Below are positions 205 through 30,362 of a DNA stretch of 64,000 bases, piece after piece. The notes below the pieces were generated by a model. It ran no database searches. It was not told the DNA's origin and worked only from the letters and a program-made list of their open reading frames with translations. The DNA is taken from NCBI GenBank assembly GCA_000004985.1, contig GG738845.1; one strand, written 5' to 3'. Made by a program: the position numbers and the translations under genes. Origin of the DNA: Naegleria gruberi (lineage: Eukaryota). Each line of letters opens with the position of its first letter. The first letter of the stretch is position 1.

Positions 205-2082
205 ATGATGCAAAGGGTATCACGCTCAATTTCAGCTCGTTTGCCAACCTTGGTTTTGTACTCAAAAAAATCAAGTTTCGGAAAGAGTATTAGTAAATTA
301 CCTATTATTCATGTGGAACCTTGTGTAAAACAATATCATTCTAATTTTGTTAACTTGTCAATTAATCCAGAAAAATTTAAAATATTAGAATCAATTTACG
401 ACCAATTAGTTAATGTGGATATTGTACAACTTTTTGAGAGAGTAGAAAAACACAAGCAACAATTGCAATTAATGTCACTGGACAGAGTTAAAAATTCCGT
501 CACAACCGACAGATCCTCTTCAAATTCTCCAAAACCTAAATTAACTATTGAACCTCTTCAAGAAGATGTCAAGCTAAGAATATTAAAGAGTTTGGAAATT
601 CTTGCTTCATTACCGATTCCTCAAGAAGAAACTTTGGATGAACAAGGCAAACGTATAAAATACATTAAGAGCCAAGCTTTAAAGGCCTTAGGTGCAATAT
701 ACTCAGAGTTCTATCCATGGATGAAAATCGATAGAGATCCACATTTGGGTTTTTATTATATGCTCTCTTCTGCAAAACTTGACGATCCTGAGGCTTGTTA
801 TCATGTAGGAATTACATTCATGAATGCACTTAACTACTTAGCTGAACAAGAGTTAGAACCAGAAAAGTACAATTATATCAAGTCTTCGAGTTTTATGTAT
901 GGATCTGAGTATGATAAGGAAACAAGTACTTTTGTTTATATAGATGAAAAGTCCAGAAAGAAAAAGAACTTAATAGCTCAAGGAAAAGAAGAATTGTTAA
1001 AACAAAAAAAAACATCTGAAGAATACCTAAAGTATCCAGGAATTACAAAGGATGTTGTTTATATCAAGCTAAAGGAGAATGAAAAATTCTCTGTGGAATA
1101 TTTAAAAAAGGCTGCTGACTTAGGTGATGTAGATGCACAACTGATTATGTCTAAAATTTATTTGGAAGGAAAGGCTGGAGTTTCCTCAAATCTCAAATTT
1201 TCAATTCATTATGCGGAATTAGCAGCTAATCAACATAGTGGCCAAGCCCTTTTTAACTTAGGTAGTGTTTATCTGGTGGGAATGAGATCTCAAGTACCAA
1301 AACCTGGCTTTGAAGATTTTACTGACTATCAAATTCATACCACTCCAAATTCAACAGAGTTATTCGAAATTAAGAAAGATGTAGCAAAGGCAATCGAATA
1401 TTATGAACGTGCAACCCTTTGTAACTCCTCGGAAGCTGCATATTTCTTAGGGCATGCATACCATCACGGATTATATAATTTACCACAAAACACAGAGAAA
1501 GCCATCCTATATCTAAATCAAGCAATTAACTCAGCTCACAATGAAGCAGCTCACTACCTTTATTTAATGTATTTGACCGGGGAAAATTGCCAACAAGATT
1601 TACAAAAGGCTGAATACTATTTCAAAATAGCTATCCAATTACAGAGTCCAAATGCCCTTTTCGTTTTGGGTGATCGTTACTTCCATGGTAAAAATGGCTA
1701 TCCAGTTGACTATTCCAAGGCTTACGAGTTCTATACTATTGCTGGTGAAAGAAAGAATAAGAATGCATTGTATTGTTTGGGAGTTATGCATTATCATGGC
1801 ATCCATGTTGAGAAGAGCCACAGACTAGCTTACGAAAGGTATACACAGGCTGCTTCTGCTGGATCAAAAGAGGCTTACCTTGCCCTTTCTGATATGGTAC
1901 TTAAAGGAGAAGGTGGCGTACCTCGTGATGAACACTATGCAAAACAACTCAGAATAGCTCACGAACGTCTTGTGGCCATTGAAGAAGGAAGAGCAATTAA
2001 TCAATGTAAAGATACTGACCCAGCCATGGTTGCATCTGCAGGTTGTGGTAAATCAACTTGTCAATGTGCCCCACCACAGTAA
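205..2082 (+). CDS. Sel1-like repeat (SLR/TPR-like) protein with mitochondrial-type presequence
   Basis: Single 625-aa ORF with ATG at 205. N-terminus MMQRVSRSISARLPTLVLYSKKSS is R/S-rich and acid-free, presequence-like. Several ~36-aa Sel1-type repeats, e.g. AAYFLGHAYHHGLYNLPQNTEKAILYLNQA and ALYCLGVMHYHGIHVEKSHRLAYERYTQAA. Cys-rich C-terminus CGKSTCQCAPPQ. Confidence 0.6.
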   Translation: MMQRVSRSISARLPTLVLYSKKSSFGKSISKLPIIHVEPCVKQYHSNFVNLSINPEKFKILESIYDQLVNVDIVQLFERVEKHKQQLQLMSLDRVKNSVTTDRSSSNSPKPKLTIEPLQEDVKLRILKSLEILASLPIPQEETLDEQGKRIKYIKSQALKALGAIYSEFYPWMKIDRDPHLGFYYMLSSAKLDDPEACYHVGITFMNALNYLAEQELEPEKYNYIKSSSFMYGSEYDKETSTFVYIDEKSRKKKNLIAQGKEELLKQKKTSEEYLKYPGITKDVVYIKLKENEKFSVEYLKKAADLGDVDAQLIMSKIYLEGKAGVSSNLKFSIHYAELAANQHSGQALFNLGSVYLVGMRSQVPKPGFEDFTDYQIHTTPNSTELFEIKKDVAKAIEYYERATLCNSSEAAYFLGHAYHHGLYNLPQNTEKAILYLNQAINSAHNEAAHYLYLMYLTGENCQQDLQKAEYYFKIAIQLQSPNALFVLGDRYFHGKNGYPVDYSKAYEFYTIAGERKNKNALYCLGVMHYHGIHVEKSHRLAYERYTQAASAGSKEAYLALSDMVLKGEGGVPRDEHYAKQLRIAHERLVAIEEGRAINQCKDTDPAMVASAGCGKSTCQCAPPQ

Positions 2083-13667: not shown

Positions 13668-14510
13668 TTATCTTCTTTCTCTTCTTTCTCTCTTTGGATA
13701 TTCCTTCTTAACCTTCTTTTCAGAAAGGAACTTTGAGTGTTCAGCGAATGGAGAAACGAGTTGAGGATTGACGGTCCACAAATCTGGAGTCTTGAAGTTG
13801 TAAGTCTTCTTGATGGCAGCGAAAGTAGCAGAAACAAAGTTAGCAAGAGTCTTGGTGTTACCAACAGATGAAGTGAAAACATCAGAATAACCACCCAATG
13901 ACAAGAGCTTCTTTGGAACAGGGGAAGCAACCAAACCAGAACCACGAGGAGCAGGAACCAATCTGACTCTGACGGAACCGCACTTACCAGTCAATTTACA
14001 TGGAACAGTGTGTGGTTCACCGATCTTGTTACCCCAGTAACCCTTTCTGGTTGGAACAATGGACAACTTAGCCAAAATGATGGCACCTCTGATAGCAGTA
14101 GCAACTTCAGAAGCAACCTTGATACCCAAACCACAGTGTTGGACGGAGTCACCAACAACAACGACAGCCTTGAAACGAGTTCTTTGACCAGCAGTAGTTT
14201 GCTTTTGGACTGGAGAAATTCTCATGACTTCATCAGACAACTTTGAACCCAAGAAGTGATCAATGATTTGGTGTTCCTTGACTGGGATAGAGTGGACAAA
14301 GATGTCTCTAATATCCTTGACCTTACCTTCCTTGACCAATCTACCGAGCTTGGTGGTTGGGACCCATGAGCCGCTTTCGTCCTTTCTTGGACCTCTCTTT
14401 GGACCTCTCTTTCTTCTATCACCACCCTTTTGACCGAAGGTGTTTCTTCCTCTTCTTTCGCCAGCTTCTTGCTTTTGAACGTCAGTTGTTTGTTGCTTGT
14501 TATCGCTCAT
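13668..14510 (-). CDS. RPS2: 40S ribosomal protein S2 (uS5)
   Basis: 280-aa ORF. RG-rich N-terminus, then the highly conserved uS5 core [16 protein letters not shown]...[104 protein letters not shown] at 14510. Confidence 0.9.
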
Positions 14511-14850: not shown

Positions 14851-15635
14851 ATGGCACCACAAAAACAAAGTTTGGATCATGTTCATGAAAAGATTGTTGT
14901 TCTCGGTTCTGGAGGTGTTGGTACGTACACAAATTTATTGTCACAATAATCCCACCAATTTGAAAAGGAAAATCTGCTGTCATTTTGCAGTTTATTCAAT
15001 CGGTTTTTGTGGAAGTTTATGATCCAACATTGGAGGATTCATACAAGAAGGAGATTATTATAGATTCCACTCCTGTTACTTTAGAAATTATTGATACAGC
15101 CGGACAAGGTAGGTTTAATTTTGAAAAAGAATAACTTATTATTATTATTTTGAATTTAAATAGAGGAGTTGACAAGGTAAGAGATTTTTATGGTGGAAAT
15201 ATTTACATACATTTCATCAGTTTACGTGATAATTATGTTAAAAATGGGGATGGATTTCTTCTTGTTTATTCAATAACTTCGAGTCAATCTTTTGAGGAAA
15301 TTGAAGATTTGATTGAACAAATTATGAGAGCTAAGAATATTGATTCTGAAAACCCAACAGAATTATCAAAAAATTTATCTGCTGTCATTATTGGAAATAA
15401 AGCAGATTTACAAAATGAGAGAGCAGTATCTAATCAATCATTACAAAAACTAGGAGAAAGATTCAAAGGTAAAATTCCAATATTTGAAACATCAGCAAAG
15501 GAGAAAATTAACATTGAGGAGTCTTTCATGGCATTGGCAAGACAAATTTTTGATAAAAAGACAGGTAAACAGCCTGCCAAAAAAGAAGGTGGAACATCTT
15601 CAAATAGCTCAGAATCGTGTTGTATTCTTTTATAA
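14851..15635 (+). CDS. Ras-family small GTPase (Ras/Rap-like, CAAX CILL), 4 exons including a 13-nt micro-exon
   Basis: Exons 14851..14920, 14968..15108, 15164..15176, 15221..15635; introns 47, 55, 44 nt. Spliced product [91 protein letters not shown]...IIGNKADL...ETSAK...CCILL. G1 GxGGVGKS, effector loop [9 protein letters not shown], G3 DTAGQE, G4 NKxD and SAK are all present only after splicing. The micro-exon encodes (E)ELT. Confidence 0.8.
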
Positions 15636-15778
15636 ATAATTTTATTACCATACTTTAATTTTAAACTACGTTGCATGAGGAAATGCCTTATTGTTAGTAT
15701 TGATATTCATGTTGCTTTTTTCTTCAATTATGGAAATTTTCAAAATCGCAATTAATTGCGTTTGTATTATTTTAAAAA

Positions 15779-19438: not shown

Positions 19439-20397
19439 ATGAACAATCAAGTTAATAATAAATCAAAGCCAAAGTACATGTATAAAATTATTTTTGTTGG
19501 AGATAGTACTTGTGGAAAGACGTATGTAATTTATGATCAAATAATAATTGATATTATTTTGGATTTTATTAAAGAGCATTTATTCAACAATATGTAAATA
19601 ATTACTTCTCCAAGACTTATAAATCAACTCTAGGTGTGGACTTCTCATATAAAGAGTATGACTATGATGAAAATACATGTTTTAATTTACAAGTAGGTTA
19701 ATATTTATGTAACTTATTAATTATTCCAAATCAAAGTTTTGGGTAAGTTTTGTATTTTCATATTATGTTTAATCGAATAATAGGATATTGCAGGACAGGA
19801 AAGGTTTGTTTTGGATATTATTAATTATTATAAAAATTGTTAAAGATTCGGAAGTAAGTACTTTCCCAATTGTTCCAATAATTAACAAAGATTAAAGCCA
19901 TGACAAGTGTTTTTTATAGAGATGCTGTTGTTGCTGTGATTATGTATGATGTGACAAATCCTGTGACATTTGATCATACTAAAGATTGGAAAATTGATAT
20001 TGATTCAAAAGTTTTTCTTCCACCACTCAATGAAAATGATTCTGATGATATTCCAATACCTTGTATTCTAGTTGGAAATAAGATTGATTTAAACAAACAT
20101 GAGAAGCTTAATTTCAAACCAAACGAATTGGATGAATATGTTAAAAAACATGGATTTGCTGGATGGGTTGAAACAAGTGCAAAAGATAGGACAAATATGG
20201 ATAAGGCTGTAAAAATGATAGTGGAACAGGTATTAAAATATCACGAGAAGGAAGTTCAAAGAGAAATTAGACCAGAAAATCCAATGGCAATCAATATCGA
20301 TAAGCTTGTTGGAGATATGCCAAAGAGTGACGATGGATTGAATTCTGAGGATGCCAAGAAAAAGAATTCGTCTTCAGGATCTTGTTGTTCTAAATAA
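19439..20397 (+). CDS. Rab32/Rab38-family small GTPase, 6 exons including 6-, 20- and 8-nt micro-exons
   Basis: Exons 19439..19521, 19575..19692, 19737..19742 (ttttgg = FW), 19784..19803, 19846..19853, 19898..20397; introns 53, 44, 41, 42, 44 nt. Spliced product ...KIIFVGDSTCGKTTAFIQQYVNNYFSKTYKSTLGVDFSYK...[53 protein letters not shown]...ILVGNKIDL...ETSAK...CCSK. Junctions match the vertebrate Rab32 string [31 protein letters not shown] residue for residue. The ORF track sees only the last exon (19900..20397). Confidence 0.75.
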
Positions 20398-25089: not shown

Positions 25090-28000
25090 CTAACAACTTA
25101 CATCAACATAAAGTGAAAGGTAGGTCCACATTAAGTTGGCGGAATAATACATGATGGATGTATTACCTTTGAGAAGTGTTGCTATTTTTAGAACTAAAAC
25201 ACACAATTCTTCCACTCTTAATATTAAGGTGCTCATACTTCTACAAAATAGTAGATTTCTGAATATTATAACGAGATATTCTTTCACTGCTTCGTTTGGG
25301 CTTTTTTCGAATTGTTCAAATAAATGGTCAATAGTATCAGATTGTAAGAAAGATTCATGGCAATCTTCAAAGAATGACAAATGAGACAACAGCTTTAAAC
25401 AGTATTCCATTCTTGTGTCATCTTTCTTCTTGATAAATATTTCTTTAAGACCATTGATGATTTTATCAACTAGTCCATACTTTAACATGGAATATCTAAC
25501 CTCTCCTGTACTAATCAGAGAACTTAATAACATGAAATAGGCATGACTATTAGTGAGCTTGCTTTTGGCTGATAATGATCCGCTAACAATATCAAGTAGA
25601 AGAGAATTGTTTTTGTTCTTGTTAATATCTTTTGCAAACTCAAGTTTGCTTCTCTCACAATTAGTGACCATATTTAGATAAACGTAAAGCAATGATAACC
25701 TTATTTCTGAGTCTGTAAAATCAGAGAACCAAATATATTTTAGATCTTGAAATAGGTTAAAGTCATTAGATACCTTCTTGGCATGGTTAGATAGAAATAA
25801 GTGTTGGAAAATGGAAAGGTTGAGGACAAGTTGATGTTTTAGCTTATCAATACTGTTACACTTTTCTGACCTGGAGGTGTGCATAAAATCGATAGAAAGG
25901 GAAGAAACAATCTTTCTGTTGAATGTACAATTACTCTCAATTATAGACTCTTGAACCTTTTCTTTTGTGGTTGTGTAAATGTTCAGAATCCAAGATAGAG
26001 ATTTACCAAGTATAAAACATTCCTCACAATCGATATTTGCAAAAAAGTTATCTTGACTTGAATAGTACAATCGTTGAATCTCGTCCACTATTTGCATCAC
26101 ATATTCATTTTCTCCTAGTTCAGAATTATATGGAAAACATTTTCTTCCAATTAGGGTTGTTACATATTTTGAAACTGTTATATTCACATTAATAGAGAGT
26201 GATGACTGGAGGGTAGCAGAAATAATTTTTAGAGTATTTTCCCTAGTTTTCAAATATTCTAGAGATAGATCATCATTTTTGGCAAATGCAACTAGATTAT
26301 TCATAATACAAAACGCTAATTCTATCAATTTGTCAGTTTTCTTAACTGTTAGTAATGTTCCAACAATCTTTTGTATATTATCCACCAATGTAGTGTCTCT
26401 GATCAGGTATGAAGCAATATCATTATTGTTTTGTATGATTTTCTTAACAACTTTCAATAAATTTTCTAAGGAATTATAAGAGATTGTTCCTAAATAGGCT
26501 ACATCCTCTAATTTTTGCAATATATAATTTAAAGAACTGTTTTCAAAGAGAACCTTACTCTGTGAAGATGGATCCCTCAGTAATAATTGATATATAAGAG
26601 CAGTTACAGATTCTAAATTTCTATCTCCTAGATTGAATAATTGTGGGAATGGAATACATTCCAAAAATCTATTCAAAGGCTCTGAGCTTAGAGAAATGTA
26701 TTTACATATTATCCAAATGCATTGATCCTTAACTATGTCAGTATCTGCGCTGGAAAGTTTGCTCACTATTAATTCTACCAGCTTTGGGTTTGATTTCTCT
26801 AACAGTCCAAAAGTTTCTTTGGTGTGCAATCCGTTCGAAATTATGCTGAAAATGCTCTCTCGTACATTAAAATTTTTCGAAAATATTAAAGAAAGAAATA
26901 TTTCGTGTTCTTTAACAATATCTATCCACGATATTTCGTATTTTCTTAATAATCCTGAAAGGGACTCTAACGACTTCAAACAAATGTGTTCGCAATGTGA
27001 CCCAAAACAAACTCCAGCTTCAAACGCTTCTCTTTCTTGTAAGAGTACTTGCAAAATATCTTCAAAAGTGGATTTCAATATCTCTAAACTATCAATAGAG
27101 AATATTTTACCACTCATTCCAATCCTACAAATACATCTTAACGAGTCTACTCTTAGATCATAGGGAATCTTCTTTTTGATAAAATTTCTTAGGGAAATAA
27201 GTAGCAACTCATCATTCAGTAATAATTTCAACTCATCTACACACTCTTCTTCCTGTAGGGATTGTGTGCAAAAATCTAAAAATTTCAGCATACAAGCCCT
27301 TAAGCTTGTACGATCATGAACCAGGTGATCTGTTTGGCTTGGTTGTAAAATAGTAATAAAGTTTTTGCAAAAACAATAAGAGAGTTCAGAAATCAAATCC
27401 CTCTCAAATCTCTTTTTTTTCGCTATTGTAGAGAAAAAACCTATTAAATTTTCCAAAACAAGATCATCTGCTTTGCTGGTAGGCGCTTTTTGTAAGAACT
27501 TGAAGATTACTCTTCTCCAGTCACTTTCACAAAAGATATCGAAACAATGTTCATCCATCATTAGAAAGTCCTGAAGAATTTGAAGATTTGTTAGGAATTC
27601 TCCATGACTTCTAGATTGTGAAAGCTTTAAAAGTGAGTTCTTAATAAAAATTTTTGGATGGATTTCATAAAGAACTTCAAATTGTTGGTCTTCTGAATTT
27701 TCGGTGAATGATTTGTTAAATTTGAAAAAATTCACTAATTCTGTTGAGTAGACTTTCGTATCACTTTCACATTCAATTTTGTAAAATGAGGAGTGTGGAA
27801 ATGTGTAAAATGATTCTGATATATTTTTTAGAATTGGATTTGCTTTCTCATTTGTTTCAAACACCATCTGTGTTTTGAATCCATTACTATTCCTTACATA
27901 TCTGTCCTTAGAAAACACTATTCTACTTAGAAACATAAAAGAGAGCTTTCTAACTACTAAATCAACATGGAAAAGTACTAAGGGAACTAAGAAAATAGAA

Positions 28001-30362
28001 TATGACCAATTAACTTACATTTGTATAGGGAGGAAAGTTTGGATTCTTCCATTGCAAATTCTTTGTTATCAAAAATAAGAATTAATAACACAAGCAACTC
28101 CTTAGAAATATTTTCTAATGTTCTGTTTAAGACTATTTCTGCTACCTCCTTAGATAAAATTTTGCTGTTGAGTGGTTGAATTCTCAACAGAGTACATAAT
28201 TGATTAGCAACTGATTTCAAAATAAGAGAGTCCTCTGTGTCTCTCATTAGTGATACTAGTGATTCAATATCAATATCAAAACTATCATTTGGGATGGGTG
28301 AATCAAAAAATCTATCCACATCCTCTAAATAGCAACTTAAAAAGGGATCACCTTCTTTGAGTTCGATATAATTTTCTGTTTTCAAATCTAAAATAAATAG
28401 AGATTTGAGGTTAACACTTGCTGTCTCTCTAATCCACTTATATTTGTGGAATAAAAATCTCGTGTGATAAGCCAATAGTTCTTCCTTTGTCATTAGTCTT
28501 TCAAATAATTGAAGAGTAGAAGTAACTTCATCTAAACTATCTTTAGCTGAGAGAATATTTTCAGAGTATTTGATAGTGCATTGTAATAAGGGAAGGTTTG
28601 GTAAAAATCCTCTTATTGAACAAGGACTGTTTTGAACGATATCCAAAGTAGTCTTTACCGATTCTTCCAATTCTATGGAGTGAAGAGATATTAGGTAGAA
28701 TATATCTTCAGAAGCAAGCTTTTCAAGAAACACATGTTGATCTTCTGCAATGAATTTAATTGCATAGCTTCTAATATCCTTATTATTACAAGAAAGCAAG
28801 TCCAACAACAACTCTCTACAAGAATCTTCTAAAAACTCGGATGTTATAAATAATTCTTGCATGTATCTTTCTAAAATTCGCGCATCGAATGTATGTGGTA
28901 GTATTAGAAATATGTTACGAAGCCTGCTTAGATGTGCTTCTGCATCAGGTAGTACATCACAATCTTCGTCCATCAATTGTTCCAACAGCTTGAAAGATTT
29001 TTCAATCTCTGGGAGTGTATTGAAATTGTTGCACGCCTTATTCTCAAAACGTTGAACTTGATTCAAAACTTGTTTGTGTATTTGAGGAAAACACAAATAT
29101 AAATTATTGTCAAATAAAAAATTCTCCAAAATAGGGCTAAGTTTTTCAATACAGTCCATTAACTGAAATTAGTTAATAAATAAGGATAAATATATTAGGA
29201 TACTTACGATGGTAGAGCTTGATCTGTTCAAAATTGTTGTTAGTAGATCGACAATTTTATAAGTATCCAAAATATCTAGTTTCTCGTGCAATAAATTTCC
29301 AATATCCTCATAAATATTTATCAAACTTTCCATTAATGTGAGCTTGTCTAATGAACAAATTTGTTCTAAGAAACAATTCAAAATCAATTTAAGGATATCA
29401 ACAAGTCTTCCCAGCAATGAAGGTTTAAGTTTGAAAATATATATAAATTTAGAATAACAATATTTGAAAATATATAGCATTGAATCAGTGTCAACAAATG
29501 TATAGCTCTCTAGAGAATTATTAAGAATTTTCAAAGACGCTTTGTCAAATAAAACACTCAAACATTCTAAAACTTGTAAATCTATTGCCATTCCAAAATC
29601 ACTCTGAATCGATGACACCAAGGACTACATAATTTAAGTCAATTAATTGATCTCAAACTTACCCTAATAATTTCTGGGCTTTGAACAAAGTATTCGATTG
29701 GAAACTCCAATAAGGGTGATTTTTTGAGATCTGAAAGAGCCTCTTGTATCAAGTCCACTCTCCTTTGTTGAAGTTTTACGTTGATTTCAAATAAATATTG
29801 TTTGTCCAATTCTGCCAAATCAGCTTTTTTAATAGCCTTCCTAGTATTTTTTGGTTCTTTCTGTGGCATGTTTTCTCTTGTAGAATATATCTGAAATCGA
29901 GAAGTATGTAAATCAGTAGATGATTGATTTAAAATAGATTGCTCTTGGTAAATAGTGACAATATTTTCCTTCTCATTTCTTACTTGTTTTAATACTTCCA
30001 CTATTGAATCAACATCGGAATGAATATCTTCAGGAGCATACAATCTCAAAGTTTGAAAAAATCCTATAGCTCCAATCTCTATCAAAATCAAAGCACTTGT
30101 TTTACTCTGTTCTGAGTTAGTGTTTTTGGATATTGTTACAAACCTTAGCAAATTCTCGCACAAGTTGTATTACTTGCCGATAATAAAAACAAGGATTATT
30201 GTTGAACCATTTCAACAAGGCTACTAATAGCTGCTCATCATCCTCGGAAGACTGCACATTAACAACTCCATATTTGAATTTATTTAATAAATTTGCCATT
30301 GCTCTCTTCTTAATTTCAATGTTGGGATTATCCAACTTTTCCAGCAATCCCGAACAAGTCAT
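25090..30362 (-). CDS. Very large (~1710 aa) alpha-helical ARM/HEAT-like repeat protein, 5 exons, function unknown
   Basis: Minus-strand exons 30362..30144, 30106..29663, 29624..29208, 29162..28019, 27977..25090. Introns are 37 nt (GTTTGT...cactaactcagaacAG), 38, 45 and 41 nt (GTAAGT sites). This joins five track ORFs (30117..30362, 29639..30163, 29169..29621, 27987..29159, 25090..27936) into one frame. Leucine-rich helical composition throughout. Confidence 0.55.

Follow-up and report, generated by a model that had tools for sequence, protein, structure and literature searches.

A predicted 13-nt micro-exon at the start of switch II in a Ras gene of Naegleria gruberi

Constitutive coding micro-exons of at most 15 nt have been described in plants (Yu et al. 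2022, PMC8831610); they are conserved, the reading frame depends on them, and annotation pipelines often miss them. The 13-nt exon that we analyze here is like those plant exons in its size, its conservation and the need for it in the frame, and a Rab32-like gene nearby is like them in the failure of its annotation. Unlike the plant cases, however, the two genes belong to a heterolobosean, have introns of 41–55 nt flanking their tiny exons, and lie in an intron-poor genome; N. gruberi has 1.7 exons per gene, and its exons average 894 bp (PMC8296547). The window, by which we mean the whole 64,000-nt stretch of N. gruberi NEG-M DNA that was analyzed (GenBank assembly GCA_000004985.1, contig GG738845.1), is AT-rich, with a G+C content of about 32%. 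Segments that stay open for 70 codons or more cover 95% of it, and the largest gap between them is the micro-exon cluster of the Rab32-like gene. Because the genome is intron-poor and the window is 95% open, the Ras and Rab32-like genes are exceptions in this genome. In the searchable literature, we found no discussion of the Ras micro-exon itself and nothing specific on micro-exons in Naegleria or Heterolobosea or on intron clustering in small-G-protein genes.

The Ras-family gene and its published model

The Ras-family GTPase gene occupies positions 14851–15635 on the + strand and consists of four exons separated by three GT...AG introns, as follows.

14851–14920, + strand: exon 1, 70 nt; runs from the ATG at 14851 through GSGGVG to base 1 of the next Gly codon, and so splits the P-loop
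14921–14967, + strand: intron 1, 47 nt, gtacgt...aaaag; phase 1, interrupting the codon of the Gly that precedes GKS
14968–15108, + strand: exon 2, 141 nt; (G)KSAVILQ...YDPTLEDSY...IIDTAGQ plus G; completes the P-loop and contains switch I and the DxxGQ motif
15109–15163, + strand: intron 2, 55 nt, gtaggt...aaatag; phase 1, interrupting Ras codon 62, which codes for the first Glu following Gln
15164–15176, + strand: exon 3, the putative micro-exon, 13 nt, AGGAGTTGACAAG; codes for (E)ELT(S) of switch II
15177–15220, + strand: intron 3, 44 nt, gtaaga...atcag; phase 2, interrupting the codon of the Ser at Ras position 66
15221–15635, + strand: exon 4, 415 nt including TAA; begins T TTA CGT GAT (S-LRD) and carries GNKAD, ETSAK and CCILL (CAAX box)

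Exon 2 ends with GAT ACA GCC GGA CAA G at 15108, followed by gtaggt, and the 13-nt exon has canonical borders (aaatag before it and gtaaga after it) and falls within the limit of at most 15 nt used for internal coding micro-exons. The exon coordinates given in an earlier note on this DNA, including 15164–15176 for the 13-nt exon, are all correct.

The spliced product is 212 aa long and contains all of the G1–G5 motifs (G1 as GxxxxGK[ST], the G2 Thr in switch I, DxxGQ, GNKAD and ETSAK), and its C terminus, CCILL, is a predicted CAAX prenylation box. It matches the Pfam Ras profile PF00071 with 166.8 bits (E 3.9e-49; cut-off 21.6) over profile positions 1–161 of 162. The best match in the PDB is Rap1b (E 2.1e-49), and switch II aligns without a gap to the structures of Rap1b (PDB 4m8n) and HRas (PDB 8elv), with which the Naegleria product has the G-domain fold family, the nucleotide-binding motifs and the CAAX end in common. 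Rap1 has Thr at position 61, whereas the Naegleria product has Gln there, as in Ras, so the residue that marks Rap1 is lacking; Herman et al. 2021 (PMC8296547) apply the name Rap1 to three other N. gruberi genes and call this one, XP_002683041.1, Ras.

Letter for letter, the 212-aa product is GenBank EFC50297.1 (RefSeq XP_002683041.1, UniProt D2UXJ8), "ras family small GTPase [Naegleria gruberi]". An exhaustive search of exon chains found a single GT-AG path in the window that encodes EFC50297.1, with introns at 14921–14967, 15109–15163 and 15177–15220. Since the database protein is identical to the product and can be encoded by this path only, the 13-nt exon is already in the reference annotation, and EFC50297.1 and the Ras gene of the window are the same object, with no difference between them. 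Thus, the 13-nt exon is already known, having been within the published N. gruberi gene model since the genome release of 2010. The Ras-superfamily models of N. gruberi and N. fowleri were later checked by hand, and XP_002683041.1 was listed uncorrected as "Ras", with "Ras26" as its N. fowleri partner (Herman et al. 2021, Table S8, PMC8296547). The exon alone therefore matters little, being long annotated and accepted by expert curators.

That the gene is unannotated is rejected by an exact-sequence look-up, which matched EFC50297.1; this protein is masked by the representative of its 90% cluster, P0001, a 161-aa metagenome ORF that reads through intron 3. By exact-sequence look-up, long ORFs elsewhere in the window likewise match NEG-M proteins (EFC50295.1, EFC50299.1 and EFC50301.1), which are encoded on a 1.56-Mb scaffold.

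Splicing paths through switch II

We enumerated all paths with at most two GT-AG introns between fixed anchors and scored them against the Willaertia orthologue. Twenty-two paths are in frame and free of stops; the micro-exon path has the top score of 230, the next best scores 203, and among the 22 only the micro-exon path restores a full-length switch II (QEELTSLRD). The earlier note had held that only this path keeps the frame, which is too strong because 22 paths do so; as the sole route to a full-length switch II, the path stands. By chance, about 2e-7 segments of the form AG|13 nt|GT coding for EELTS would be expected in the 112-nt interval, and none was obtained in 200,000 shuffles, in which a loose switch-II pattern arose five times; a chance origin of the match is thereby excluded. 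Skipping of the micro-exon shifts the frame and brings a stop after 88 aa, and inclusion would therefore be obligatory. The note was thus right that the exon is needed for a full switch II. We predict that the exon is included in N. gruberi mRNA on the basis of the reference model, conservation and the logic of the frame. The predicted fold of the pre-mRNA around the micro-exon revealed no unusual structure (z = +0.98, with 161 of 200 shuffles equal or better).

We consider it very likely that the gene of EFC50297.1 has a constitutive 13-nt coding micro-exon, including the splicing mechanism and the intron-gain origin that we propose here and in the next section. The micro-exon would supply E-E-L-T(-S), the start of switch II, between GT-AG introns of 55 and 44 nt, and introns this short would be recognized as units (intron definition), as general knowledge of splicing suggests. 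The length of the exon would then matter little because the splice sites probably pair across the 41–55-nt introns. An exon of 13 nt is too short for 3′ and 5′ splice-site complexes to assemble on it simultaneously. The two introns flanking such an exon are probably removed sequentially, as an exon of 6–14 nt cannot hold both complexes. A lineage-specific capability for splicing very small exons, suggested in the earlier note, is not needed, and exons of comparable size are known from plants and other eukaryotes (PMC8831610).

There are two ways in which the locus could lack such an exon. In one, a single intron at 15113–15220 is removed, and switch II is three residues shorter, reading DTAGQ-G-SLRD. 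This path keeps the frame, meets no stop and uses GT-AG sites, and its product still passes the Pfam Ras profile with 153.4 bits. That score, however, is 13 bits lower than the 166.8 bits of the micro-exon product, the path itself scores 196 against the Willaertia orthologue compared with 230 for the micro-exon path, its donor, gtttaa, is poor, and the residues that it drops are identical in four species. An equivalent of this shortcut is absent in N. fowleri, and in a collection of 15 billion sequences, the exact single-intron protein is absent and the micro-exon product is present. We regard this reading as extremely unlikely, although the DTAGQ-G-SLRD product may occur as a minor isoform of the Ras gene. 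The other reading, that the locus is a pseudogene or an artefact of gene prediction, draws on the unusual size of the exon, which is its sole support from the gene itself, and on the behavior of prokaryote-style gene callers, which on metagenome contigs give just the last-exon ORF (P0001). Against it, the spliced ORF is intact from the G1–G5 motifs to the CAAX box, the synteny of the locus is conserved, the codon differences between N. gruberi and N. fowleri comprise 75 synonymous and 43 non-synonymous changes, and the N. fowleri equivalent is present in two GenBank accessions, KAF0984507.1 and CAG4711548.1. The earlier note had named a pseudogene as one of the things that would overturn its reading, and on this evidence we give that possibility practically no weight.

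Intron turnover around the micro-exon

The Ras gene lies next to a ribosomal protein gene that served as a synteny anchor.

13668–14510, − strand: uS5 ribosomal protein gene, divergent from the Ras gene and 100% identical to N. gruberi uS5

The same head-to-head uS5/Ras pair is found in four genomes, namely N. gruberi, N. fowleri (L010), a relative seen in metagenomes (L002/L012) and Willaertia magna (L001), and because each Ras gene adjoins uS5 in this way, we take the four to be orthologues. The N. fowleri orthologue was not in the locus that holds the Rab32-like gene (L007); it was found beside uS5. Protein identity to N. gruberi is 79.5% for N. fowleri, 72% for L002 and 64% for Willaertia. 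The string QEELTSLRD is identical in all four species, and the micro-exon codons differ only by synonymous changes (GAG/GAA, GAG/GAA, TTG/CTC/TTA/CTA and ACA/ACG). A metagenome scan for further orthologues yielded one locus only, which was 31% identical and unusable.

The metagenome relative (JGI 3300002220, ENA ERZ27315067) is a Naegleria-like species. A third metagenome contig, L003 (ENA ERZ929261), is identical to N. gruberi over 15050–15755. Prokaryote-style gene callers give only ORFs that read through introns on L003, L002 and L012.

The N. fowleri model has exons of 67, 140, 14 and 412 nt and introns of 61, 87 and 112 nt, and its product is KAF0984507.1 (FDP41_000406). It has the four-exon layout, the positions of introns 1 and 3 and an EELT(S) micro-exon in common with N. 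gruberi, and the gene models of N. fowleri that contain this equivalent micro-exon were built with RNA-seq hints. The two species differ in that the N. fowleri micro-exon is 14 nt long with an upstream intron of phase 0, whereas the N. gruberi micro-exon is 13 nt long with an upstream intron of phase 1, a shift of 1 nt. Exons of the two genes are 64–81% identical, and the introns differ in length and cannot be aligned, which is why cross-species alignment of DNA in the Ras intron regions was uninformative.

We therefore compared the positions of introns near switch II in H-Ras numbering, in which the Gln of DTAGQ is Q61 and, for example, 62-1 denotes codon 62, phase 1.

N. gruberi Ras: codon 62 phase 1 and position 66 phase 2
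N. fowleri Ras: between 61 and 62, phase 0 (CAA|gtatgt...tttag|GAAGAA); 66 phase 2
L002/L012 Ras: 66 phase 2 alone; QEELT follows on from the upstream exon without a break
Willaertia Ras orthologue: codon 63 phase 2 alone
Willaertia paralogue P0012: 64 phase 1
Willaertia paralogue P0016: no intron near switch II
Acrasis P0018: 60 phase 1

The earlier note had proposed a comparison with Ras and Rab genes of relatives. Among the heterolobosean genes mapped, 62-1 occurs only in N. gruberi and 66-2 only in Naegleria and L002, and none of the more distant orthologues or paralogues among them has an intron at either codon and phase. Further upstream, the position of intron 1 is common to N. gruberi (47 nt), N. 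fowleri (61 nt) and L002 (41 nt), and intron 3 is common in position and phase to N. gruberi (44 nt), N. fowleri (112 nt) and L002/L012 (54 nt). The Ras orthologues of N. gruberi (14851–15635) and Willaertia magna (L001 3001–3862) have three introns each and no position in common, which indicates high intron turnover between these genera.

As judged from these positions, the 66-2 intron would be older than the split between Naegleria and the L002 lineage. The intron upstream of the micro-exon is found in N. gruberi and N. fowleri only and is absent from L002/L012 and Willaertia; given this distribution and the order of the protein identities (79.5% > 72% > 64%), its gain in the ancestor that N. 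gruberi shares with N. fowleri probably created the micro-exon, an argument from parsimony over few taxa to which loss in the L002 lineage is the alternative. In the order of events that we propose, the older 66-2 intron would have been present first, and a second intron gained 13–14 nt upstream of it would have set off the micro-exon.

The upstream intron differs by 1 nt between the two Naegleria species at both ends with the same peptide encoded (N. gruberi 15108/15109 and 15163/15164, CAAG|gtaggt...atag|AGGAG; N. fowleri L010 4127/4126 and 4040/4039). Discordant introns 1 nt apart were described by Fekete et al. 2017 (PMC5587772), and the intron upstream of the Naegleria micro-exon resembles them in its 1-nt displacement. 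The four-species comparison is thus a clean small case of intron turnover, with a 1-nt shift included, in a lineage usually called intron-poor.

The Rab32-like neighbor

A second small-GTPase gene in the window contains even shorter exons.

19439–20397, + strand: Rab32-like GTPase gene; exons 19439–19521, 19575–19692, 19737–19742, 19784–19803, 19846–19853 and 19898–20397

The exons are 83, 118, 6 (TTTTGG, coding for FW), 20, 8 (ATTCGGAA) and 500 nt long, and the introns between them 53, 44, 41, 42 and 44 nt. The predicted product of 244 aa matches human Rab32 (E 2.9e-51) without a gap through the micro-exon stretch LQFWDIAGQERFGTMT, with gaps only downstream. Both the 6-nt and the 8-nt exon are identical in N. 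fowleri, and the Rab32-like gene of Willaertia has a 14-nt exon and has a codon-63 phase-2 intron in common with Naegleria.

The 8-nt exon (19846–19853) directly follows DIAGQE(R), so the earlier note correctly placed a tiny exon just after DxxGQ in both GTPases. Its wording that the two are at the same structural position holds approximately, but the introns are at 62-1 and 66-2 in Ras and at 63-2 and 66-1 in the Rab32-like gene, 4 nt and 1 nt apart. The note offered a retained ancient intron-dense region as one explanation. On such a reading, the tiny exons of both genes would be relics of one stretch from the common ancestor of the small GTPases. The closeness of the introns, which after DxxGQ lie only a few bases apart in the two N. 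gruberi genes, speaks for this, as does codon 63 phase 2, which the Rab32-like gene uses in N. gruberi, N. fowleri and Willaertia and the Ras orthologue uses in Willaertia. The positions and phases in the two N. gruberi genes are nevertheless unlike, the codon-62 intron of Ras is absent from L002/L012 and Willaertia, the paralogues have 60-1, 64-1 or no intron, and the Naegleria and Willaertia Ras orthologues have no intron position in common. This scattered distribution counts against a retained ancient cluster, which we find highly unlikely, and we keep to a more recent gain of the codon-62 intron as the probable origin of the Ras micro-exon.

A different question is whether the stretch from β3 into switch II (Ras codons 55–66) is a hot spot of intron gain in the small-GTPase genes of Naegleria and its relatives, repeatedly producing exons of 6–14 nt that are conserved across the genus, along with introns discordant by 1 nt. 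Ten heterolobosean Ras and Rab32 genes have 10 distinct intron positions within these 36 nt and 8 in the other ~460 nt of the G domain, counts that come from a small sample partly picked for these introns (window 15084–15250 and 19693–19897, L001, L004, L005, L007, L008 and L010). We regard the hot spot as possible but doubtful. If it were general, Naegleria would be a compact system, poor in introns, in which their recent gain and sliding could be studied, and would be suited to asking how the spliceosome handles 6-nt exons.

The reference model of the Rab32-like gene, EFC50300.1 (XP_002683044.1), lacks FW and reads ERF-IKA-MTS in place of ERF-GT-MTS, as its introns at 19693–19783 and 19808–19890 engulf both the 6-nt and the 8-nt exon. 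Correction by hand in Herman et al. 2021 (Table S8, PMC8296547) restored FW but left IKA in place, so the 8-nt exon is still missed there. Thus, what is new at this locus is the predicted 8-nt exon, which is in neither the reference nor the curated model. The Pfam Ras scores are 126.9 bits for the reference, 134.1 for the curated sequence and 139.3 for our homology-guided model, a gain of 12 and 5 bits, respectively. In N. fowleri, the Rab32-like protein P0121 (FDP41_003219) lacks the conserved FW, and the 150-nt "intron" of its model contains ag|TTTTGG|gtatgt; the missed 6-nt exon is L007 6347–6352 (GCA_008403515.1, contig VFQX01000033.1). Because the 8-nt exon is missing from the curated N. 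gruberi sequence and the 6-nt exon from the N. fowleri GenBank model, errors in switch II remain in the Naegleria small-GTPase catalogues, and protein-guided splicing would mend them.

Two other models may need a check of their starts or exons. The ORF at 205–2079 (+ strand) has 625 aa compared with 536 aa for EFC50294.1, the N. gruberi protein in the same 90% cluster, and the ORF at 27990–29159 (− strand) has 390 aa compared with 560 aa for EFC50649.1, likewise the N. gruberi protein in its 90% cluster.
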